This document shows positions 8,847 to 30,070 of a stretch of DNA of 32,000 nucleotides, piece by piece. The position numbers and the translations under genes were made by a program. Positions within the stretch are counted from its first letter, which is position 1. The number at the start of each line of letters is the position of its first letter. The notes under the pieces were generated by a model. It was not told the DNA's origin and searched no databases. It was given only the letters and a program-made list of their open reading frames with translations. Source of the DNA: Singulisphaera acidiphila DSM 18658 (GTDB lineage Bacteria; Planctomycetota; Planctomycetia; Isosphaerales; Isosphaeraceae); assembly GCF_000242455.2 (NCBI RefSeq), contig NC_019892.1:5124744-5156743 (forward strand), written 5' to 3'.

Positions 8847-9890
8847 CTATCCGGCCGGAGCGGCCCGGAACCGAACGCGGTAGTCGCTGGGGGCAATCCG
8901 AAGCACCCTCAGGAATGAGCGTCGCATCGAGTCGGCGCTGCCGAAGCCGCACTCGCAGGCGATCTTCTCCAGGCCGCCCTCGGATTCCTCAAGGCGGCGG
9001 CGGGCCGCCTCGACCCGCAGCCGCTCGACGAACCGCGCCGGGGTCCGGCCGATCTCGCGGAGGAAGACCCGCGCGAAGTTCCGCGGACTCATGTGCATCT
9101 GCCTGGCGAGCGCCTCGACGGTCAGGTCCGCGGCCAGGTTCTCGGCCATCCACGCCTGGAGTTCTCGGAGCGGCTCGCGGTCGGCCGCCTGCAATTCCAG
9201 CAGGGCGCTGAATTGCGACTGGCCCCCGGGCCGGCGGACGAACATGACGAGGTGGCGGGCGATCTGAAGGGCGACGGCGCGGCCGTGGTCTTCCTCGACC
9301 AGCGCCAGGGCCATGTCCATTCCCGCCGTGACGCCGGCCGAGGTGTAGACGTGGCCGTCGCGGACGAAAATCGGGTCGGCCTGGACGTCGACCTCCGGGT
9401 AGCTCCGGGCTAATCGCCCGCACGATCCCCAGTGGGTCGTCGCCCTGCGGCCGTCGAGCAGGCCGGCCGCCGCCAGGATGAAGGCCCCGGTGCAGACCGA
9501 GCCGATCCGCCGCACGCGGGGGGCCATGCGGCGGAGCCAGGCGAGAAAATCCGCATCGCTGGCGACGTCGAAGACACTGTCCCCGCCGACGACGAGCAGC
9601 GTATCGACGCTCCCCCGGAGGCGGGCATAGCTGCGGTGGGCAACCAGGCCCACTCCGCTGGAGGTGATGACTTGCAGGTCCGTGGTGGTCGAGATGACCT
9701 CGACGAGGTAGCCGTCGGCCCTCGCGCCGTCGCCCTCCCCCCGAACCTGTTCCAGGGCCGCGAAGACGGCGCACGGCCCGGCCACGTCCAGGAGTTCAGC
9801 CTGCGGATAGGCCACGACAACGATCCGCCGTGGCAGGACCCGCGCCTCCTCCTCCTCCGGTTTGCCTTCTCGATCGCCGCGCTTTGCCAT
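8847..9890 (-). CDS. GlxA-family transcriptional regulator (DJ-1/PfpI domain plus AraC HTH)
   Basis: The N-terminal DJ-1-like domain has SVCTGAFILAAAGLLDGRRATTHW. The C-terminal AraC-type HTH has ALARQMHMSPRNFARVFLREIGRTPARF...CGFGSADSMRRSF. Confidence 0.9.
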   Translation of the reverse strand: MAKRGDREGKPEEEEARVLPRRIVVVAYPQAELLDVAGPCAVFAALEQVRGEGDGARADGYLVEVISTTTDLQVITSSGVGLVAHRSYARLRGSVDTLLVVGGDSVFDVASDADFLAWLRRMAPRVRRIGSVCTGAFILAAAGLLDGRRATTHWGSCGRLARSYPEVDVQADPIFVRDGHVYTSAGVTAGMDMALALVEEDHGRAVALQIARHLVMFVRRPGGQSQFSALLELQAADREPLRELQAWMAENLAADLTVEALARQMHMSPRNFARVFLREIGRTPARFVERLRVEAARRRLEESEGGLEKIACECGFGSADSMRRSFLRVLRIAPSDYRVRFRAAPAG

Positions 9891-10293
9891 GACCCACCTC
9901 CGATGCAGAGACCTGTCGTTGTTTAGGAATCATAGCGCGGCCGGACCGTGTCCGAAATGACAAAGATCCAGCAGTTTCTGCCAACTGCGGCTGGGGGCAT
10001 GGACCGCCCCGTCGATGACGCTGAACCCTCGTCAAACGTGGTTCGGACGCGGCGTTCCGGGTCGGAGATGCCTCGTAACAAGAAGAGATCGTGAGTCTTT
10101 CATGAGAAATAATCATGACGCTTGGAATCCGGGCGATAGACGGTCATACTCCCACCGCGTGCCCGCGTGTGGATCGCGGGCAAGGGCGGGACTCCGGCCT
10201 CCGGCTCGGGGGCGAGGAGGATGGTCGAGGTACGCGACCCAACGACCGCCACACCCAACTTGCAGGCCAGGTGAGAGGCTGGGAGTGACACCG

Positions 10294-21964: not shown

Positions 21965-23152
21965 ATGTTTGAGAACCTCACGCCTCGGGCGCGAACTGTC
22001 ATGAAGTTGGCCGACGAGGAAGCGCGGGGATTCGGGCATCAACACGTTGGCACAGAGCACATTCTGTTGGGGTTGATCAACGACGCCAGCAGCATCGGCG
22101 CCAAAATCCTCAAGTCACACGGCATCGACCTCGCGAGGGTTCGCCTGGAGGTAGAGAATCGCGTCGGTCGCGACCCGGTCGCCATTTCCATAGGCGAACT
22201 CTCGTTGACGCCGCGCGCCAAGCAGGTTGTCGAGTATGCCGTCGGCGACGCGTCGAACCTGGATCTCGTTGCCGATGTCGACCATCTGTTCTTCGGCTTG
22301 CTTCATGACCGTGATGGCGTCGCGGCGCTGATCCTTTTAGGCGCAGGACTCCAGCCGGACTTGGTGAGTCGGGAAGTGAGAAGCGTCATGGTGTCGAAAT
22401 ATAAGATCGTCGAGAGCGCTGTCCGCTCGATTCAAGCGAGCATGTCGCGCAAGCGAACAATCCGCGAGGAACTTCTCGCTCATCTGACATTTACTGTCGA
22501 GGAGGAGTTGAGCCGCGAAGACGACTGCGTGACCGCCATGAACGAAGCAGCACGGAGATTCGGAGACCCTGCCGAACTAGGCCGCGAACTTGAAGCCACT
22601 CTTCGGCCCAGCGAGCGAATCGCTTGCTATCTGGAACGCAGGTTCGGGTGGAAGCCGCCCGAATCCGCCGCCCGACTTTCTTTGCGACTGGCGGCTCAAG
22701 CATTTTGTCTCATCGCCATCGTGTGCAGTCTGTTGGTCGCCGGTGTCGCCTCGCTTGATGGATGGCAACCCCACGGGATGAAAACACTCTGGCTTACGTT
22801 CGCGCTATTGGTGGTCGTTCCACCTTGGCAATTCGCCAGCGCTCTTTTGTACTTCAAGTTGCGTGATTCCCTGTTGGGAGCGTGTTGGGCACGGAAGTCG
22901 CCGCCCAGGGCCATCGTGCTCAACTTGCTGATTGCGTTGGTCGCTCTTGGCTCGGTCCTTGGGTTCGGTGCAGTGGCGGCTTGGGATGTGACCGGCGCTG
23001 TCGAATTCCTGTCTGTGGGCTGCGGCATCGCACTCGTGGCGGCCGGAGGGGCGTTCGTACAGGCCTGGTGCTGGGGCAGGACCGAAATCGCCGACGCAAC
23101 TTGGGCCTGTTTGACGATCAAGGGTTTGCAAAGCCCGGGAATCACTCAGTAA
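21965..23152 (+). CDS. Membrane protein: N-terminal Clp_N (Clp R) repeats, PadR-associated HAAS / permease-prefix-like helix, and 4 TM helices
   Basis: FENLTPRARTVMKLADEEARGFGHQHVGTEHILLGLI and LTPRAKQVVEYAV are the two Clp_N repeats. IREELLAHLTFTVEEEL...AMNEAARRFGDPAELGRELEA resembles the sensor module encoded next to PadR genes. Four hydrophobic helices follow. Confidence 0.75.
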   Translation: MFENLTPRARTVMKLADEEARGFGHQHVGTEHILLGLINDASSIGAKILKSHGIDLARVRLEVENRVGRDPVAISIGELSLTPRAKQVVEYAVGDASNLDLVADVDHLFFGLLHDRDGVAALILLGAGLQPDLVSREVRSVMVSKYKIVESAVRSIQASMSRKRTIREELLAHLTFTVEEELSREDDCVTAMNEAARRFGDPAELGRELEATLRPSERIACYLERRFGWKPPESAARLSLRLAAQAFCLIAIVCSLLVAGVASLDGWQPHGMKTLWLTFALLVVVPPWQFASALLYFKLRDSLLGACWARKSPPRAIVLNLLIALVALGSVLGFGAVAAWDVTGAVEFLSVGCGIALVAAGGAFVQAWCWGRTEIADATWACLTIKGLQSPGITQ

Positions 23153-23163
23153 AGGGGCAAGAG

Positions 23164-24855
23164 ATGACTGCAATACGCGTGATGGGTATTCTGTCGCTGT
23201 GCGCCCTGGTAACCGTGGGATCGATCTGCCGGGCCGACCCGCCGCCCCAGCCGGATGCACAACCGTCGAATCGCGCAGCAGCCGTTCATAGCCTACGCAA
23301 AACGGTGATGGTAAACCCCAAGGTTTTAGACGCCTACGTCGGACAGTATGAATTGGCTCCCAAGGTCATCCTCGTCTTGTCTCGCCAGAACCGACATCTC
23401 TTCGCCCAAATCACCGGACAGCCAATTCTGGAAGTCTTCCCTGAGTCGGAAACCACCTTTTTCTGGAAGGTGGTCGATATGCAGTTCGCGATCCAAAGAG
23501 ATCAGGATGGCAGTGTCGTCGGTCTGGCATTTGGGAGAGGAGACCAGAAGGCAATCGCCAAGAGAATCTCCGGGCAAGTCCCCCCTGAGGATGACATTCC
23601 CGAGCGTGCCGAACATATCCAGAGCCCCCGATTGGCGGCTCTCACTAAGGAAACCGAAACGCATGGCAAGCCAGCCCTCGAACGGTTCTGGAACGAAATG
23701 CGGGACAAGACGCCTTTGGTCGAGCCGATTCCTGGTGAGACGCGCGATTCGTTTGTGACATTCCTTTGGCGGGGCAACCAGACGACTCGCAGAGTGTGCG
23801 TGTCCGGTGGCCTGCCGACAGGTGAAAGGGACAAACCGCTGGCGCGTCTGGACGACACGGACGTTTGGTACCGAACGGAACGAATCCCTAATGACTCCCG
23901 ATTCGTGTATGGATTCCAAGTCAATTGGCCGTCCAGGCTTCCCGAAGACCAACCGAGCCTGATGCAGCTCATGCCCCGGCTGCGCGTGAAGCTCGATCCG
24001 CTCAATCCACGCGATGTGACGATTCAGTCGAAACTTCGATCGTTAGTGGAGTTACCAAAGGCGCCCAGACAGCCTTGGGTCGACCGGCTCGAAGATGTAC
24101 CCGTCGGCACATTGCTCGAGACGAAGATTATGAGCAATATTTTGAAGCAGGAGCGTGAATTCACCGTTTACACTCCGGCCCGGTACGACTCCTCTGAGCG
24201 TGGTACGGATAAATATCGACTTCTCATCGTTTTCGATGGCCCGTCTTATCAGAGCAATGATGAGATTCCCGCCCCAGTAATACTCGATAACCTGATCGCC
24301 AAGGCAAAAATACCGCCCACGGTTGCCGTATTCGTGAAACATGCTGACCGCAACAGGGATTTGGCTTGTTCGGAGCCTTTCGCCGACTTCGTCGCCAAGG
24401 AGTTGATTCCGTGGACGCGGAAGAATTACGACGTTAGCCATGAGCCAGGACAAACAATCGTCGGCGGCCTAAGTCAGGGTGGACTGATGGCCGCCTATTG
24501 CGGTCTGCGTCATGCTGATGTCGTCGGCAACGTGCTGTCTCTGTCCGGATCCTATCAATGGTTCCCGGGGGCGCGAGACGAAACAGGCCCGAACGATGGC
24601 GAGCCCGGCTGGCTGACGCGACAGTACGCGGCCACGCCGCACCGTCCGATTCGCTTCTATCTCCAAGCGGGTCGCTTCGAAGACAGCTTCCCTCTTAGCT
24701 TGCTGGCTGAAAACCGCCGATTCCGAGACGTCTTGCAGGCCAAGGGCTATTCCGTTCAGTACTCGGAACTCAACGGCGCACACGATTTCCAAGCCTGGCG
24801 GGGGGCTTTTGCAGAGGGACTGATCGAGCTATCAAAGAGGCATGATGGAAAATAG
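23164..24855 (+). CDS. Secreted esterase (enterochelin-esterase/esterase-D-like alpha/beta hydrolase) with N-terminal DUF3471-like domain
   Basis: The ATG at 23164 is followed by signal peptide MTAIRVMGILSLCALVTVGSICRA. The sequence has a DUF3471-like region YVGQYELAPKVILVLSRQNRHLFAQITGQP...FFWKVVDMQF and a Fes-type N-domain VTFLWRG...DTDVWY. The hydrolase core has GGLSQGG (GxSxG). Confidence 0.85.
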   Translation: MTAIRVMGILSLCALVTVGSICRADPPPQPDAQPSNRAAAVHSLRKTVMVNPKVLDAYVGQYELAPKVILVLSRQNRHLFAQITGQPILEVFPESETTFFWKVVDMQFAIQRDQDGSVVGLAFGRGDQKAIAKRISGQVPPEDDIPERAEHIQSPRLAALTKETETHGKPALERFWNEMRDKTPLVEPIPGETRDSFVTFLWRGNQTTRRVCVSGGLPTGERDKPLARLDDTDVWYRTERIPNDSRFVYGFQVNWPSRLPEDQPSLMQLMPRLRVKLDPLNPRDVTIQSKLRSLVELPKAPRQPWVDRLEDVPVGTLLETKIMSNILKQEREFTVYTPARYDSSERGTDKYRLLIVFDGPSYQSNDEIPAPVILDNLIAKAKIPPTVAVFVKHADRNRDLACSEPFADFVAKELIPWTRKNYDVSHEPGQTIVGGLSQGGLMAAYCGLRHADVVGNVLSLSGSYQWFPGARDETGPNDGEPGWLTRQYAATPHRPIRFYLQAGRFEDSFPLSLLAENRRFRDVLQAKGYSVQYSELNGAHDFQAWRGAFAEGLIELSKRHDGK

Positions 24856-25136: not shown

Positions 25137-25803
25137 TCAATTCAGTTTGTAAATATGTGGTTTGAGATATGAACGATTCGGTCGAGCACGCGGACTCAGC
25201 AACCGTTGCAAGGCGCAACGGATCGCTGGGAGGGTGAGGCCCCGCTCAGTATCCCCTTTTTTCCCCGGCTGGGCCGGGTCGCGTTTCGCTCGGAGCTGTT
25301 CCAAGGCCAGGAAGTCGTAGGCCATCATCACCAGGCAGACATGGTGGTGGAAGCCACGCCTGGGGTGGCTCTCGAAATGATCCAGACCCAACTCGCCTTT
25401 CCTCGGCTGATAACCCTGCTCCACGGGCCAGCGAGTCATCCACAGTCGGCCCGCCCGCAATCGTCTTGTGGCCGGCGACAGGTTGCTGAAGGCGTACTTC
25501 GGCTTGCCGTCGGCCTGGTGCTCGATCAGCGGCCAGGTCGGTTCGGCACCGGAGCAGTCGTCCGTGGCCCAGCCACCGCCCGGTCAGGCCCGCAACCAGG
25601 CGAAGTGGCCTGTCAACTTCCCCTTGGTCCCTTCACGCCAGGCCACCTTCCGCAGGCGCGTGTTGGCAGCCAACTCTCTCAGGCTCACCGGCCGGGTTGC
25701 GCCTTCGGCCAACCGGGGCCGCTTCCGCGGTCGCCCACCGGTCCCGCCGGGCTTCTCGACCGGCCCCGGCAATTCCCACCTCGGCTCTTCGGTGAAGACG
25801 ACC
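25137..25803 (-). pseudogene. IS701-like (DDE_5) transposase, C-terminal part; in-frame TGA and internal deletion
   Basis: The frame reads VVFTEEPRWELPGPVEKPGG...VSLRELAANTRLRKVAWREGTKGKLTGHFAWLRA, a TGA at 25584-25586, then ...RLWMTRWPVEQGYQPRKGELGLDHFESHPRRGFHHHVCLVMMAYDFL. The block carrying the second catalytic Asp appears to be missing. Confidence 0.7.
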
Positions 25804-25884
25804 TGTTAAGTTCCCCGGTAAATGTCACTCCTTTTGACCCGCTATTTGTCACTACGGCTTGACCCGCTATTTTGTCACTACGGC
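25804..25884. repeat. Transposon left end with three TGTCAC-terminated subrepeats
   Basis: The subrepeats are TGTTAAGTTCCCCGGTAAATGTCAC (25804-25828), TCCTTTTGACCCGCTATTTGTCAC (25829-25852) and TACGGCTTGACCCGCTATTTTGTCAC (25853-25878), followed by TACGGC. This is a multi-site end architecture as in Tn7-like and Mu-like elements. Confidence 0.7.
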
Positions 25885-26055
25885 CCACCGGCCTTGGGAC
25901 TCGAATCTAGGGCACTGATCAGCATCGGGCGGCGAAAAATGTATGCAATTCTTGGATCGGAAGACATTTCACGCTTGCAAGTGGAAGACGGGACGGAGAC
26001 GATGTCGGCACTCTTGTAATCGACCCCAGACTTGAGCCATCCGCGAGGAGCAACC

Positions 26056-27003
26056 GTGACCGACTACCGCCAGCTTCTCGCGTGTTCCGACGCGGAGTTA
26101 GCCCGGATCGATCCGCTGGTGATGAACCTGCTGGTGGCCAAGAGCATCCCCATCCTGGCCGATCTCGACATCGCCCGCTACCAGAAGCTCGCCGATCAGT
26201 GGGCCGAGGCCGTGCGGCGGCGGCTGCCGGCTGCGGAGCGGGTTTTCTGGCAGACGCCACAGGACTGGAAGAACGACGTAAATTTCTTCCGCCTTGGCGT
26301 GCTCTGCGGCTACCTGGAGCACGAGGCGGGTATCTCCTACAATGAGGACCAGCGGTACGCCACGGCGATCCGCTACACGGACCCGTCGGACCTGTTCCTC
26401 AACGGTGTGATGGACACGCGCCAGGGCACCTGCGGCAACATGGCGGCGTTGCATGTCGCCCTCGGCTGGCGTCTAGGCTGGCCGGTGTCGCTGGCGTGCG
26501 TGCGGTCGCACTACATCTGCCGCTACGACGACGGCACGGTGACGCACAACATCGAGGCGACGCAGGCGGGCTACGGCGGGTTCAAGTCGGACCCGGATGA
26601 GTACCTGATCGAGCGTTACGAACTGCCGCCGAAGGCGATCAGCAGCGGCTCGGACTTGCGTGCGGTGAATCCGCGCGAGATGCTGGGTATCTTCCTGGGG
26701 TTCCGAGGTCGGCACATGCGGGACACGGACCGGTGGGACGAGGCGGAACGGGATTACCTTTTGGCCCGGCACCTGTTCCCGATGAACCGCAAGCTTTATG
26801 TTGACGCGATGGGCGTGGCGGTCGATCGGAGCGTTCGGCTGTTCGAGCCGGGCGAGTTGGAATCGCCGCAGAGCCTGGCGGATTGGCTGAACACACAGTA
26901 CCGGCCGGTCCGTCCGTTGGTGAGGATACAGACGAAGGATTTCCCGTTCCAGAATGTGTCCTACACGGCATCGGTGCGATCTTCCAAGGAGCAGCGGCCA
27001 TGA
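26056..27003 (+). CDS. Transglutaminase-like (SirB1-like) cysteine-protease-fold protein
   Basis: RQGTCGNMAALHVALGWRLGWPVSLACVRSHYICRY...HNIEAT fits the Cys/His/polar arrangement of transglutaminase-like domains. A GTG at 26056 follows AGGAGC. The stop overlaps the next start. Confidence 0.7.
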   Translation: MTDYRQLLACSDAELARIDPLVMNLLVAKSIPILADLDIARYQKLADQWAEAVRRRLPAAERVFWQTPQDWKNDVNFFRLGVLCGYLEHEAGISYNEDQRYATAIRYTDPSDLFLNGVMDTRQGTCGNMAALHVALGWRLGWPVSLACVRSHYICRYDDGTVTHNIEATQAGYGGFKSDPDEYLIERYELPPKAISSGSDLRAVNPREMLGIFLGFRGRHMRDTDRWDEAERDYLLARHLFPMNRKLYVDAMGVAVDRSVRLFEPGELESPQSLADWLNTQYRPVRPLVRIQTKDFPFQNVSYTASVRSSKEQRP

Positions 27004-27791
27004 TCAGCACACGAACGACTGGGCGGGGTGAAATGACGCTGAGTGGGTGGGACTGGGACGGCTCGTCGCTCGGGAGGGCAAGCTTAGCCGGGGCCGATCC
27101 GCTCGGATTCGCGGCAGGTGACACCAATCTCTACCGCTACGTGGGTAACAGTCCGACCAACTTCACTGACCCAACGGGTCTACAAACCGTACCGGGAAAC
27201 TACAAGCCGCACCCCTGGCCCGTTCCCGACCCGGCGAACACGATCGTCTTGATTGGCCCCCCCAAGTTCAAGAACGGCAAACCAGACCCGAATGACTCGA
27301 ACCCGTTCAAGCGTCAAGTGTGCCGTACCGCCGGCATTCCGGATCGGAATGTTTTCGACTACAATGGTATCCAATCGCTTCTCGATGCAGCGGAAAAAGC
27401 GAAAAAACTTGGGTTGAAGAAACCCCACGTCGTGACCTGGGGTCACGCCCGTCCGGGTGGGATTTTAGTCGGTGTCAACCCTGCTAACGGGTCATTCACC
27501 GATCGATTCGATAAGAATTCAGGTGCCGACACCCTGGGGAATCTACTAAAATCGCTAGGTGCAAAAGATTATTACAATCTTGGATGCAATACATTTGATT
27601 ACATAAACGCTAGCGGTCCTAACGGATGGGACTTTTTCAACGCCGTACAACAGGCGGCGGGCAACATTCCCATTTATGGTACGGTTGGCTACGACATGCC
27701 TGGGCAAAACCTTGACCAAGCCATCAACGGTGATCCGCCGAGTTGGTACATGGAACCTGGCGGTCACATCGTCGGCCATAAGCCCAAGTGA
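27000..27791 (+). CDS. Mini-Rhs polymorphic-toxin candidate: RHS core tip plus unassigned C-terminal domain
   Basis: The ATG at 27000 overlaps the upstream TGA (ATGA). Residues 26-61, GRASLAGADPLGFAAGDTNLYRYVGNSPTNFTDPTGL (27075-27182), are the conserved end of the RHS repeat-associated core. No YD-repeat shell precedes them. A ~200-aa AT-richer domain follows. Confidence 0.8.
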   Translation: MISTRTTGRGEMTLSGWDWDGSSLGRASLAGADPLGFAAGDTNLYRYVGNSPTNFTDPTGLQTVPGNYKPHPWPVPDPANTIVLIGPPKFKNGKPDPNDSNPFKRQVCRTAGIPDRNVFDYNGIQSLLDAAEKAKKLGLKKPHVVTWGHARPGGILVGVNPANGSFTDRFDKNSGADTLGNLLKSLGAKDYYNLGCNTFDYINASGPNGWDFFNAVQQAAGNIPIYGTVGYDMPGQNLDQAINGDPPSWYMEPGGHIVGHKPK

Positions 27792-27880
27792 TTTCGGCGA
27801 TGCTTAATCGAAGCGGCCCTTGCCCGACGCTTAGTGTTTTGAAATCGCTTCTCGCTAGCGTTGGACATCTGAGATTTAGC

Positions 27881-28438
27881 ATGAGGTCGCTGCTCGTCCT
27901 AATTGTATTCTTGGCACTGGTTCTGGCATTAGTCGTACAACAACACAGAGCGGCCGTGAGAATTCATTCACTCCGTTCAGAACTCGTCGAGGCCCAAGCA
28001 ATTCTTACCGCCTATGAGAGAATGCATGGTCTACTCGGAGACCGAGGGATCCATATCCTCAAAACCGCGACGCGCGTAGAAATTTTATGCGTTGGCCAAG
28101 GGGCAGGTTATCCGCGCACCCCGACGGGGGTGGACCTCGACAAGGCAGCTACGGATCAACTGAGCCAGGCGATACTTGATATAGATAATTATTCGCATTT
28201 AGATTCGGACGATATGCCGGTGCCACAAGCTGGCTTCCGGTTCCGAGGCGGTAATGCGTCTCTTGACATTCTGGTGAGTCTGGAAGGATCAAACGTAAAT
28301 TCGCCTCACGTTGATTTGTTTGTTTTTATTAATAATGAAGATGGTGCCTCGGAGTATCGAGGCCATGCCTGCATGTACAGTAAGCCACTGAATGATCTGC
28401 TTGTGAGCGTGGTAGCCTCAGGCGAGAATCTCCAATAA
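27881..28438 (+). CDS. Putative cognate immunity protein (N-terminal TM anchor)
   Basis: It lies immediately downstream of the toxin candidate and shares its low GC. It begins MRSLLVLIVFLALVLALVV. Alternative in-frame starts exist at GTG 27788 (GTGA overlap with the toxin stop) and ATG 27800. No family was recognised. Confidence 0.5.
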   Translation: MRSLLVLIVFLALVLALVVQQHRAAVRIHSLRSELVEAQAILTAYERMHGLLGDRGIHILKTATRVEILCVGQGAGYPRTPTGVDLDKAATDQLSQAILDIDNYSHLDSDDMPVPQAGFRFRGGNASLDILVSLEGSNVNSPHVDLFVFINNEDGASEYRGHACMYSKPLNDLLVSVVASGENLQ

Positions 28439-28467
28439 TCCCTCTCGCTTAGTTTTTTATAAAATGG

Positions 28468-28923
28468 TTATAATGGTTTACTAATGATCGTTGATATCCG
28501 GCTATCCAAAAGCTTCCGGCCGTCCGGGCGCAGGTTGTTGTTCGGATCGACATGGCGGTAGAGCGTTTGCCGGGTGATGCCCAACTCCGAGCACAGCATC
28601 CCCACCTTGGTATCCCGGCTGGCCATCGCCGCCATCGCCAGGCGGAGCTTGACGGCGGTCATGGTGTAGGGCCTGCCCCCGTTGCGGCCCTGAGCGCGAG
28701 CTGCGGCCATACCCGCTTTGGTTCGCTCGACGATCAGTTCCCGCTCGAATTCCGCCAGGGCGGCGAAGATGCCGAACACCAGCTTGCCGCTGGGTGAGGT
28801 GGTATCGATGCTGGCCCCGTGGCTGGACAGCACCTTGAAGCCGATGCCGCGTGCGGTCAGGTCATGCACCGTGTTGACCAGATGCCGCAGATCACGGCCG
28901 AGGCGGTCGAGCTTCCAGACCAC
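28468..28923 (-). CDS. Serine recombinase (resolvase/TniR-like), N-terminally truncated and lacking the catalytic Ser region
   Basis: It starts at (LV)VWKLDRLGRD and contains FGIFAALAEFERELIVERTKAGMAAARAQGRNGGRP and the HTH LGITRQTLYRHV. The roughly 45 N-terminal residues with the nucleophilic Ser are absent. Confidence 0.8.
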   Translation of the reverse strand: MVWKLDRLGRDLRHLVNTVHDLTARGIGFKVLSSHGASIDTTSPSGKLVFGIFAALAEFERELIVERTKAGMAAARAQGRNGGRPYTMTAVKLRLAMAAMASRDTKVGMLCSELGITRQTLYRHVDPNNNLRPDGRKLLDSRISTIISKPL

Positions 28924-29806
28924 CAGCCCGGTCCGCTTGCGTCCGGGAAAAGCCGGGCAGCCGCGACAGGAGCACCTGCGCGAGCGAATCGAAGAAACGC
29001 TCGATCTTCCCCCGCCCGCGCGGGCGGGCCACGGTGGAGTTGATTAGGCGGATTTTCAGGTCGGCGGATACCTGTTCGAGATGCCGGGAGGTGAAGTCGC
29101 TGCCGTGATCGGAATAGAGCACCTGCGGGATGCCGCAGACGTGCCAGCCCGGTTGCGACTTCCGCCAGATCGCCTGCCGCAGCGCCAGGGCCGTCTGGAT
29201 CGATGACGGGGCCGCCAGCGACAGGCAAAAGCCCGCCACCGCCCGGCTGTAGTCGTCGAGGATGATCGTCAGCCAGGGCCGGCGTGCCGTACCGTCGCCA
29301 TCCTTGATGAGGATGTCGAGTTCGGTGTGATCGGCTTGCCAGATGGCGTTGGGTGCGGTCGCTTCATGGTGATGGACCAGGTCGAAGGACTCGCTATACG
29401 CCTTCGATCCCTCATGCGCCAGCGCCAGCAAGGCCGGCTCCAACTCGCCGACCACGGTGCGGACCACCTTATCGCTCGGCGGCTCCTGGCCCAATTTCCT
29501 CGCGGCGTCGGCCACCTCGCGGTGGATGGTCGCCGTCGGCATCCTGGGCTTACGCAACGCCAGCCCCTCGATGAGTTGCCGGAGGGGAGCCGCCAGCTTC
29601 CTCTTATCCTTGTCGTTCCGCTCCTTGCGGGCCAAACCAGCCAAGCCTTCCCGGCGGTAGCGATTGACCCTGCGGCGTGCGGTGCGGAGAACGAGCCCTT
29701 GATCCTGGGCGATCTGCGTCAGCGGGCCGCCATCTTCCAGGAAGGGACGGATGATCTGGAACCACGCGAAGGCACGCAACCGGCCCTCGTCGGGCAGGCT
29801 ACTCAA
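28892..29806 (-). CDS. TniA/TnsB-like (Mu-type, rve) DDE transposase, C-terminally truncated
   Basis: There is an N-terminal HTH region. The DDE core reads WQADHTELD ... VLYSDHGSDFTS ... RGRGKIERFF. The frame ends about 20 aa after LPGF by running out of frame into resolvase DNA. The start is a TTG at 29806. Confidence 0.75.
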   Translation of the reverse strand: MSSLPDEGRLRAFAWFQIIRPFLEDGGPLTQIAQDQGLVLRTARRRVNRYRREGLAGLARKERNDKDKRKLAAPLRQLIEGLALRKPRMPTATIHREVADAARKLGQEPPSDKVVRTVVGELEPALLALAHEGSKAYSESFDLVHHHEATAPNAIWQADHTELDILIKDGDGTARRPWLTIILDDYSRAVAGFCLSLAAPSSIQTALALRQAIWRKSQPGWHVCGIPQVLYSDHGSDFTSRHLEQVSADLKIRLINSTVARPRGRGKIERFFDSLAQVLLSRLPGFSRTQADRAGGLEARPPRP

Positions 29807-29896: not shown

Positions 29897-29945
29897 GTGA
29901 CAAATAGCAGGGCAAAAGAAGTGACACTTACCGGGGAATTTAACA
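29897..29945. repeat. Transposon right end with two subrepeats
   Basis: GTGACAAATAGCAGGGCAAAAGAA then GTGACACTTACCGGGGAATTTAACA. This is the reverse complement of the first two left-end subrepeats. Confidence 0.7.
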
Positions 29946-30070
29946 AGACGACCATCTCGTCGGTGACACCGACGATGTCTCTCAGGCCGCGCGCCGCTCG
30001 TGGTCCATCAAACTCGATTTTGCGGCGTTTCCATCGCCCCCAGACTGCCGAGTTTGCTAAGATTCACCCC
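29946..30070 (-). pseudogene. IS701-like transposase, upstream part separated by the transposon insertion
   Basis: The minus-strand frame reads ...FDGPRAARGLRDIVGVTDEMVV. It continues in frame into FTEEPRWEL at 25803 once the transposon and one AGACGACC copy are removed. Confidence 0.55.

Follow-up and report, generated by a model that had tools for sequence, protein, structure and literature searches.

Rhs toxins seal their cargo in a shell of YD repeats and release it by means of the shell's own aspartyl protease. Here, we analysed a stretch of 32,000 nucleotides from the planctomycete Singulisphaera acidiphila DSM 18658 (contig NC_019892.1, positions 5,124,744 to 5,156,743 of the forward strand), referred to in its whole length as the window, in which three adjacent genes between positions 26056 and 28438 encode a transglutaminase-like protein, a mini-Rhs protein with a toxin candidate at its C-terminus, and a membrane-anchored immunity candidate. 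On balance, we consider it probable that these three genes form one unit of a new polymorphic-toxin architecture, so far confined to Planctomycetota, which would be exported and directed against competitors by the mechanism proposed below. With the canonical Rhs/YD toxins, represented by Rhs proteins of type VI secretion systems (T6SS) and by TcB-TcC, the module shares a tail ending in DPxGL in front of a hypervariable toxin, a downstream immunity gene, displaced cassettes that leave orphan remnants, and the toxin domains themselves. It differs from them in having no YD shell, PAAR domain, signal peptide or TcB part, in retaining 29 of the 76 positions of the Rhs core, in the dispensability of the first aspartate of the tail, and in its constant partner, an enzyme-like protein combining a transglutaminase-like domain with tetratricopeptide repeat (TPR)-like helices.

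Several other described systems resemble parts of this arrangement. MARTX toxins and large clostridial toxins such as TcdB are autoprocessed by a cysteine protease domain. Peptidase-headed PVC-metallopeptidase toxins have, like the module, a head of peptidase fold that is strongly conserved, with toxin ends behind it that are interchangeable (PMC3482391). From both groups the module differs in fold and lineage, in having no known injection apparatus, and in a head that is mostly split from the toxin. For full RHS toxins, inactive N-terminal transglutaminase domains have been described (Zhang et al. 2012, PMC3482391), thus placing a transglutaminase fold N-terminal to Rhs-type polymorphic toxins; in the module, however, the putative triad is essentially invariant, signal or transmembrane segments and a repeat array are absent, and the domain is usually a separate protein. 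Orphan Rhs-CT/immunity pairs of Salmonella likewise express a shell-less Rhs toxin end and its immunity gene on their own (PMC7043789), but these are rhs fragments with internal promoters and no partner enzyme, whereas the module has its toxin end in a free-standing gene that possesses a start of its own and is accompanied by a conserved partner. SirB1 (YchA) belongs to the same Pfam family as the transglutaminase-like protein, PF13369, and has the same layout of a transglutaminase-like domain and TPR-like helices, but here only the planctomycete clade is linked with one specific partner, namely the Rhs-tail toxins. In a 2023 survey of papain-like folds, the function of PF13369 was given as unknown (PMC10318531). 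In our full-text literature search, we did not encounter a PF13369 head, active and either free-standing or fused, that is joined to a shell-less Rhs tail, in agreement with the initial annotation of this DNA, which had called the combination not a described system; the module has apparently not been described before.

The module of the window comprises the following features.

Positions 26056-27003, forward strand: transglutaminase-like/TPR head gene, 315 aa, PF13369 (Pfam match, conserved triad).
Positions 26986-26991, forward strand: Shine-Dalgarno sequence AAGGAG for the mini-Rhs gene (read from the sequence).
Positions 27000-27089, forward strand: mini-Rhs leader, codons 1-30, of the MxSTRTMGRDGATLRVLGWDGSSLG type (conserved in about 35 short proteins; predicted to be disordered).
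Positions 27090-27182, forward strand: tail of the Rhs core, codons 31-61 (GADPLGFAAGDTNLYRYVGNSPTNFTDPTGL), with the DPxGL junction at its end (TIGR03696 positions 48-76).
Positions 27183-27791, forward strand: variable C-terminal toxin candidate, about 200 aa, alpha/beta (rare family, invariant residues, drop in GC content).
Positions 27881-28438, forward strand: immunity candidate, 185 aa, with an N-terminal membrane anchor (low-GC cassette; homologue in locus L001).

The head gene lies in an open reading frame (ORF) at 26032/26056-27003 on the forward strand, and since the NCBI protein has 315 aa, translation starts at the GTG at 26056. The 263-aa product of 27000-27791 is 100% identical to an NCBI protein of S. 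acidiphila annotated as 'RHS repeat-associated core domain-containing protein'. In this protein, the Rhs_assc_core model TIGR03696 matched residues 32-61 with its positions 48-76 of 76 (29 positions; E 1.2e-6, 28.9 bits), a score below the cutoff of 32.5 because the match is partial. Pfam yielded no match to a YD-repeat shell (PF05593 or PF25023) in the 263 residues, and searches of Pfam and NCBIfam together with the lack of a hydrophobic N-terminus gave no PAAR domain, signal peptide or TcB-type element. Neither an rhs gene nor a YD-repeat ORF was present anywhere within the window. The initial annotation was thus borne out in its claims that this gene carries just the end of an RHS core and has neither a YD shell nor a signal peptide or trafficking domain. 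About 35 short proteins (170-300 aa) found with the mini-Rhs query are 55-78% identical over their first ~61 residues, with the shared start MxSTRTMGRDGATLRVLGWDGSSLG...GADPLGFAAGDxNLYRYVGNxPTxxxDPxGL, and become unrelated after DPxGL. An orphan cassette would have no start of its own and a main rhs gene upstream; here, the gene has an ATG, an AAGGAG Shine-Dalgarno sequence and a conserved leader, and the window holds no rhs gene.

The two genes overlap as ATGA, the ATG at 27000-27002 sharing bases with the TGA at 27001-27003, and the Shine-Dalgarno sequence lies 8 nt 5' of the ATG, within the 3' end of the transglutaminase-like gene. This overlap had been reported in the initial annotation and stands, at 27000-27003, but not as a general feature of the module. 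In close relatives the two genes are about 20 nt apart, with the same Shine-Dalgarno sequence. The window gene has lost the stop codon that these relatives keep after ...YTASV and runs for 8 extra codons (RSSKEQRP; 26977-27003) through the old spacer, which is how the overlap arose. On this comparison, a short spacer is the ancestral state, and the ATGA overlap derives from it in the window only. Across loci, the distance between the genes ranges from -4 to +21 nt, comprising overlaps of -4, spacers of 9-21 nt and some in-frame fusions. A programmed frameshift joining the two window genes was also considered, the mini-Rhs frame being open for 64 codons upstream; we rejected it because the conserved Met, Shine-Dalgarno sequence and spacer of the relatives account for the layout. 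A scan for promoters and terminators gave counts near those of shuffled controls.

The link between the two genes extends well beyond S. acidiphila. A scan of one genome per GTDB species for the transglutaminase-like family gave 31 loci, none of them from S. acidiphila itself (related loci and proteins are given here with labels beginning with L and P). Nearly all of these loci are titled as Planctomycetota, namely Isosphaeraceae, Gemmataceae, Fimbriiglobus, Frigoriglobus, Limnoglobus, Pirellulales, Thermoguttaceae and Planctomycetaceae; two are titled 'uncultured Alcaligenaceae', and we suspect that these are mis-binned metagenome-assembled genomes. In about 23 of the roughly 26 loci with downstream room, the transglutaminase-like gene and mini-Rhs are linked: a tail-bearing ORF follows directly or is fused in 21, one is cut by the end of the contig, and one has the tail ORF upstream, the remaining three being degenerate or disrupted. 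In addition, all seven metagenome contexts of mini-Rhs genes show the transglutaminase-like gene immediately upstream and a small ORF downstream, surrounded by unrelated housekeeping genes. Taken together, of 33 related loci whose flanking DNA is long enough, about 30 have the transglutaminase-like gene next to a shell-less mini-Rhs. Some genomes carry multiple copies of the module, and fused and split forms both occur. In locus L030 (2726-4949), the ORF after one transglutaminase-like gene keeps '...SPLGY' without the NLYRYVGN...DPxGL tail and may be a tail-less variant or a decayed copy.

In at least five natural proteins, the transglutaminase-like domain and the tail are fused in frame. Loci L018 and L039 have the transglutaminase-like domain, the tail and a C-terminal domain in one ORF, that of L018 measuring 644 aa from stop to stop. 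An exhaustive profile search of 1.84 billion representatives, which gave 343 clusters (50% identity) at E <= 1e-30, contained four fusion proteins of 566-619 aa, P0245 (from L039; 567 aa), P0260 (619 aa), P0264 (575 aa) and P0272 (566 aa). All four run from the transglutaminase domain through a linker to '...GF.AGD.NLYRYVGN....DP.GL' and end in a C-terminus that differs in each. The two genes of the window thus correspond to one functional polypeptide in other lineages, which argues that the head acts on the toxin or together with it. The initial annotation had let its proposal stand or fall with the conservation of this adjacency, and both the linkage and the fusions show that it is conserved. 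The module is, therefore, a real and widespread planctomycete cassette with a putative toxin, and its pairing is not a matter of chance.

The head matched Transglut_core2 (PF13369) in Pfam with E 5e-10 and 39.4 bits, against a gathering cutoff of 23.5. It has 731 homologues; among the 120 listed, identity to the window protein was 58-88%, nearly all were about 307 aa long, and all carried PF13369. From locus to locus, the transglutaminase-like partner shows 50-88% identity. Of a putative catalytic triad, C126 (RGTCGNMAALHV) and H152 (SHFICRYDDG) were invariant in 28 homologues, and E167 (VTHNIEAT) was nearly so, with D in one; the Cys-His-Glu residues are present in the fusion proteins as well. 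Triad assignment here means motif position in the alignment rather than three-dimensional geometry. The AlphaFold2 (AF2) model (mean predicted local distance difference test score, pLDDT, 84.6; predicted template modelling score 0.82) shows a transglutaminase-type core and a helical, TPR-like second half, with the last ~30 residues disordered, a stretch that forms the linker in the fusions. Menin, a scaffold that combines a transglutaminase-like domain with TPR motifs and binds short peptides in its central cavity, was the top Foldseek hit in the PDB (probability 0.98-1.0, E ~3e-3, template modelling score 0.3-0.47), followed by the bacterial transglutaminase 4xz7, Streptococcus pyogenes TglA and PNGase. 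As these E-values are not significant, the likeness to menin describes an architecture and does not imply homology, and a profile search of PDB sequences with the head alignment found nothing.

Twelve distant transglutaminase-like relatives (P0255, P0257, P0258, P0261, P0263, P0267, P0275, P0281, P0284, P0318, P0324 and P0330) combine a basic N-terminus with one transmembrane helix and with C-terminal tails rich in Pro and Gln, which points to paralogues that are anchored in the membrane and possibly extracytoplasmic; the basic N-terminus and the helix are not found in the clade of the window. The transglutaminase-like genes of L022 and L023 are interrupted by in-frame stop codons, which pseudogenes or assembly errors could explain.

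The C-termini that follow the tail in transglutaminase-linked proteins include WHH (E 3e-9), Colicin_E5 (3e-7), AHH, Tox-PL-2, DUF6765 and Prok-JAB. In L044, a head gene 49% identical to that of the window is followed by an Amidase_2 (peptidoglycan amidase) end, and directly after it lies a small ORF with a hydrophobic N-terminus. A wider set of short matches, not confined to transglutaminase-linked proteins, adds Peptidase_C39 and Tlde1; at least P0048 (C39) and P0097 (Tlde1) start in a canonical core. By their family assignments, the transglutaminase-linked ends are typical interbacterial toxin domains. As in polymorphic toxins, a conserved N-terminal part is joined to hypervariable C-termini, with homology breaking off at a fixed junction.

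The C-terminal domain of the window protein is rare, with about 10 proteins in 5.8 billion, and a distant-homologue profile search with it found 7 proteins. Invariant residues are a G-P-P motif, His149 (codon 27444-27446) and Cys196 (codon 27585-27587). In the AF2 model (pLDDT 56; core 70-94), the domain takes a Rossmann-like alpha/beta fold, in which His149 follows the strand 143-147 and Cys196 the strand 190-194. Pfam, NCBIfam and PADLOC gave no family for it, consistent with the initial annotation, which had not recognised a toxin fold and had tentatively likened the domain to DUF4347/CHAT/caspase-like proteins. The invariant His and Cys each follow a beta-strand, but a significant fold or profile match did not emerge: Foldseek found nothing in the PDB at E <= 1e-3, where MALT1, CED-3 and legumain stood next to numerous Rossmann folds of a generic kind, the toxin alignment returned noise only when its profile was run against PDB sequences, and hhalign aligned His with His and Cys with Cys in the His/Cys domain of a Pirellulales Rhs protein, but with a probability of 20%. 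A caspase-like fold is thus no more than weakly suggested. That the domain occurs in polymorphic-toxin contexts, a check that had been proposed for it, is clear from two canonical Rhs junctions as well as from the WHH, AHH, Colicin_E5, Tox-PL-2 and Amidase_2 ends of its sisters. In L041, a domain of the window type follows '...GLDYDRARWFDSVGGKFIGRDPIGF...DPMGL' of a canonical Rhs core, in an ORF that runs off the end of the contig; in L042, the closest relative of the window domain (50% identity) follows 'SYDPTIGRFISEDPIAF...DPFGL'.

The product of 27881-28438 starts with MRSLLVLIVFLALVLALVV and has a single N-terminal hydrophobic anchor; Pfam, NCBIfam and PADLOC hold no family for it. Its assignment as immunity candidate, made already in the initial annotation from the membrane anchor and position, gains support from the boundaries of the cassette. 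Sister loci are homologous to the window at the nucleotide level from about 26000 up to 27142-27181, where the tail has its last codons, and again from 28493 onwards. Base composition, given as overall GC content and as GC at third codon positions (GC3), changes along the module as follows.

Head gene: GC 0.642, GC3 0.85.
Leader and tail: GC 0.617, GC3 0.69.
Toxin domain: GC 0.530, GC3 0.59.
Downstream ORF: GC 0.502, GC3 0.49.

Both the break in homology and the change in GC content thus fall at the DPxGL junction. A short, very AT-rich spacer (28439-28467; GC 0.35) separates the immunity candidate from the 3' end of the adjoining resolvase gene and lies at the right edge of the swapped cassette. 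Locus L001 holds a resident toxin of the P0003 type, and the multi-transmembrane ORF behind it is homologous (32% identity, E 1e-28) to the one that follows the Rhs toxin of L041; homologous multi-transmembrane ORFs stand behind P0003-type toxins in L002 and L041 as well. Beyond this pair (L001 8850-10114), the C-terminus of a P0002-type toxin, the family of the window, is left as an orphan fragment, 'IGIYIENGGRLQVPISPMLPKR', and after it (9542-10114) comes a homologue of the window ORF 27881-28438 (28% over 89 aa, E 5e-6). To judge by these similarities, the fragment and the immunity homologue are a classic trace of C-terminal displacement, and they are our best evidence that 27881-28438 is the cognate immunity gene. 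A limit on this case is L043, in which a toxin of the same family as that of the window has a different downstream ORF.

Substitution rates differ along the module in a similar manner. Among Isosphaeraceae-type loci, synonymous divergence (dS) was 0.41 in the head gene and 0.47 in leader codons 1-30 but ~1.5 in the tail, and the ratio of nonsynonymous to synonymous divergence was 0.59 for the leader and 0.08 for the tail, in a small sample with dS near saturation. The dS pattern fits a constant head and leader that receive recombined tail-toxin-immunity cassettes, with the tail as the shared junction.

Some modules are found close to canonical rhs genes. In L008, an RHS protein of more than 1200 aa is encoded 2.7 kb upstream of the module, which lies at the end of an rhs array. 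L035 (4-8627) contains a main rhs gene and two orphan cassettes, then the head and mini-Rhs genes at the distal end; the mini-Rhs tail carries the local GPNPFEYCGNDPTN variant and is 83% identical over 41 nt to one of the orphan cassettes. The module of L032 (4564-7819) is likewise at the distal end of an rhs array, with mini-Rhs upstream of the transglutaminase-like gene. Both aspartates of the tail are present in the window protein, D33 (in ADPLGF) and D57 (in DPTGL). The first of them (DPxGF) was present in all 34 YD-shell Rhs proteins but in only 11 of 30 transglutaminase-linked loci and in none of the fusions, its place being taken by S, R, A, P, G, T, M or Q where lost; the distal GDxNLYRYVGNxPTNxxDPxGL segment stays conserved, and the ratio of 0.08 puts it under strong constraint. 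The Rhs/TcC autoprotease, associated with the work of Busby in 2013 and Meusch in 2014, reportedly cuts after DPxGL by means of two catalytic aspartates. We take the first tail aspartate to be one of these two. If this mapping is right, self-cleavage has not been maintained in the transglutaminase-linked family, which would leave room for the Cys-His-Glu head to do the cutting. A preprint confirms cleavage at DPxGL, and that point only.

From these observations, we propose the following mechanism. The constant part would consist of a cytoplasmic transglutaminase-like/TPR enzyme with an intact triad and a disordered leader of ~30 residues (mini-Rhs residues 1-72 are disordered in the AF2 model, the leader with pLDDT ~30). 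The swappable cassette would comprise the Rhs core tail ending in DPxGL, the variable toxin domain and the cognate immunity gene, and it would be joined to the head either as a second, tightly coupled gene, as in the window, or within a single polypeptide, as in other lineages. With the tail as a common junction, toxin/immunity cassettes would pass between the module and canonical rhs loci, and the head would replace the YD shell of more than 1000 aa. We infer that the head binds the leader and the tail peptide and acts as a dedicated cysteine peptidase or as a carrier, thereby taking over the release step performed in canonical Rhs by the aspartyl autoprotease of the shell. The proposal of the initial annotation that a papain-like-fold partner might process or chaperone the toxin is compatible with our data. 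The toxin, in the window presumably a His/Cys alpha/beta enzyme, would then be exported and act on neighbouring cells, the downstream protein neutralising it. The membrane anchor of the immunity candidate suggests that the site of toxin action is extracytoplasmic or in the membrane.

We favour this exported, competitor-directed reading because of the toxin repertoire of the family, the amidase member with its hydrophobic-N-terminus ORF, and the membrane-anchored immunity candidate. Several points weigh against it. The window proteins have no signal peptide, PAAR, VgrG, TcdB/TcaC or other trafficking domain, and secretion genes are absent from the window and do not recur near the related loci, so that export is an assumption. 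The peptidase activity of the head and its cleavage site are putative: the triad comes from motif alignment, and the Foldseek E-value of the head is only ~3e-3. Assignment of the first tail aspartate to the autoprotease derives from the literature and is not the output of a tool, and the tail may be conserved in part through recurrent import from canonical Rhs donors (tail dS ~1.5, against 0.41 for the head gene) and not through selection in its present setting. The toxin and immunity proteins of the window belong to no recognised family, and the AF2 model of the toxin, with its pLDDT of 56, is mediocre. Carriage of the module on a transposon, described below, would also fit a purely selfish addiction role. 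A more far-reaching version, which we put forward tentatively, holds that the head is a trafficking-and-processing module that recognises the tail as a linear peptide, cuts it at or near DPxGL with its Cys-His-Glu triad and passes the toxin to an export route new to this phylum, and thus lets Planctomycetes deploy any Rhs cassette without a YD cocoon.

The selfish alternative draws on the DNA that surrounds the module. A 54-nt inverted repeat pair (25799-25852 and 29897-29950; 87% complementary) encloses it, the element ends (TGTTAAGTTCCCCGG...) lie at 25804 and 29945, and an identical 8-mer, AGACGACC, stands directly outside both. The features of the element, apart from the module, are these.

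Positions 25796-25803: left 8-bp target-site duplication, AGACGACC.
Positions 25804-25852, forward strand: left terminal inverted repeat (TGTTAAGTTCCCCGGTAAATGTCAC...).
Positions 28468-28923, reverse strand: tniR-like serine resolvase, 151 aa, truncated at the N-terminus by ~68 profile positions (match to Pfam Resolvase at 69-144 of 145).
Positions 28892-29806, reverse strand: tniA-like DDE transposase with rve and helix-turn-helix (HTH) domains, 304 aa, probably truncated (Pfam rve and HTH; NCBIfam IS481-like).
Positions 29897-29945, reverse strand: right terminal inverted repeat.
Positions 29946-29953: right 8-bp target-site duplication, AGACGACC.

The resolvase is 90% identical to a full 224-aa gene at the same position in L043, and homology to L007, L008, L010, L022 and L043 resumes at this gene. 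The same element end sequence is found with different flanks in L007, L010, L034 and L043, and L010 has a full resolvase together with an AAA_22 ORF. In blastn, the backbone matched regions of plasmids that bear the annotations 'Mu transposase C-terminal domain-containing protein', 'AAA family ATPase' and 'recombinase family protein', which we read as tniA/tniB/tniR of Tn5053/Tn402-type elements; the cargo was absent from all PLSDB plasmids. With Tn5053/Tn402 (tniA-tniB-tniQ-tniR), the element shares an rve transposase of Mu-like type, a serine resolvase, inverted repeats and a resolvase-proximal cargo, as well as, in L010, an AAA_22 ATPase. The window copy differs in lacking tniB and tniQ, in its truncated tniR and tniA, and in a cargo that is a toxin module and not mer or an integron; its direct repeat is 8 bp, compared with the 5 bp of the Tn5053/Tn402 family. 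By its ends and gene content, the whole module is the cargo of a defective, 4,142-bp element that is probably Tn5053/Tn402-like, a status that went unremarked in the initial annotation. Just outside the left inverted repeat (25137-25460, reverse strand) lies a 107-aa fragment matching the last ~50 positions of an IS701-family transposase, and in L008 an intact DDE_5 transposase is inserted between the left inverted repeat and the transglutaminase-like gene.

This raises the possibility of an intracellular addiction or toxin-antitoxin (TA)-like unit, in which the toxin and its downstream neighbour would act inside the producer and help to maintain the transposon or to adjust growth, with the head regulating or activating the toxin, e.g., by removal of the leader. 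Carriage within inverted repeats and a target-site duplication, on an element that recurs in L007, L010, L022, L034 and L043, agrees with such a role, but many loci (L001, L003, and those of Gemmataceae and Pirellulales) hold the module without the transposon. The lack of an export signal and of secretion genes would be expected of it, as would the behaviour of the Salmonella orphan Rhs-CT/immunity pairs, which are internally expressed and work as type II TA systems (PMC7043789). However, Amidase_2 targets peptidoglycan, ORFs with hydrophobic N-termini follow, and the immunity candidate of the window is membrane-anchored, a poor fit to a toxin that acts in the cytoplasm only; moreover, systems of intercellular competition are marked by displaced remnants and by hypervariable ends that occur in canonical Rhs as well. 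We therefore regard a TA-like unit as unlikely.

Still less probable is a role in abortive infection (Abi) or stress-induced suicide, with the transglutaminase-like protein as a cysteine peptidase that senses phage infection, cuts the leader or tail and frees the toxin. A conserved enzyme joined to a hypervariable effector, mobile and without an export signal, would suit this idea, and so would a disordered, pro-peptide-like leader ready for proteolytic activation. Yet PADLOC returned no match at E <= 1 for any of the three proteins, recurrent defence-island neighbours were not seen, a dedicated, cassette-specific immunity gene is atypical of Abi effectors, and the toxin repertoire and its exchange with rhs loci point to interbacterial toxins. 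That the cassette is a silent orphan Rhs C-terminus kept as a recombination reservoir, with the transglutaminase-like gene an unrelated neighbour, is highly improbable, since, although the core tail is the homology handle of orphan cassettes and some modules sit at the distal end of rhs arrays, the gene has its own ATG, Shine-Dalgarno sequence and conserved leader, its neighbour is kept in ~30/33 loci and fused in frame in at least 5 proteins, no rhs gene lies in the window, and the first aspartate, invariant in real Rhs, is often lost.

Away from the module, the window contains a 395-aa ORF (21965-23152, forward strand) that unusually combines Clp_N at its N-terminus with several hydrophobic segments behind it. 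It overlaps with the beginning of an enterochelin-esterase-like ORF of 657 aa (22882-24855), which probably has its true start further downstream.

Our analysis indicates that a large family in Planctomycetota keeps the last ~30 residues of the Rhs machinery and pairs them with a putative enzyme of transglutaminase fold, its triad intact. It also documents a transposon, probably Tn402-like, with a candidate toxin module as cargo, and provides a rule by which new toxin and immunity genes may be found in these genomes, namely downstream of a transglutaminase-like gene and after DPxGL. We know of no well-characterised T6SS-type delivery in Planctomycetota, and the proposed mechanism, if true, would expose a problem of leaderless toxin delivery in this phylum. 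The Rhs tail would then be a portable, enzyme-readable release tag and not only a part of the shell autoprotease, and PF13369, if its planctomycete members do read this tail, would gain a first functional context and an assigned function.

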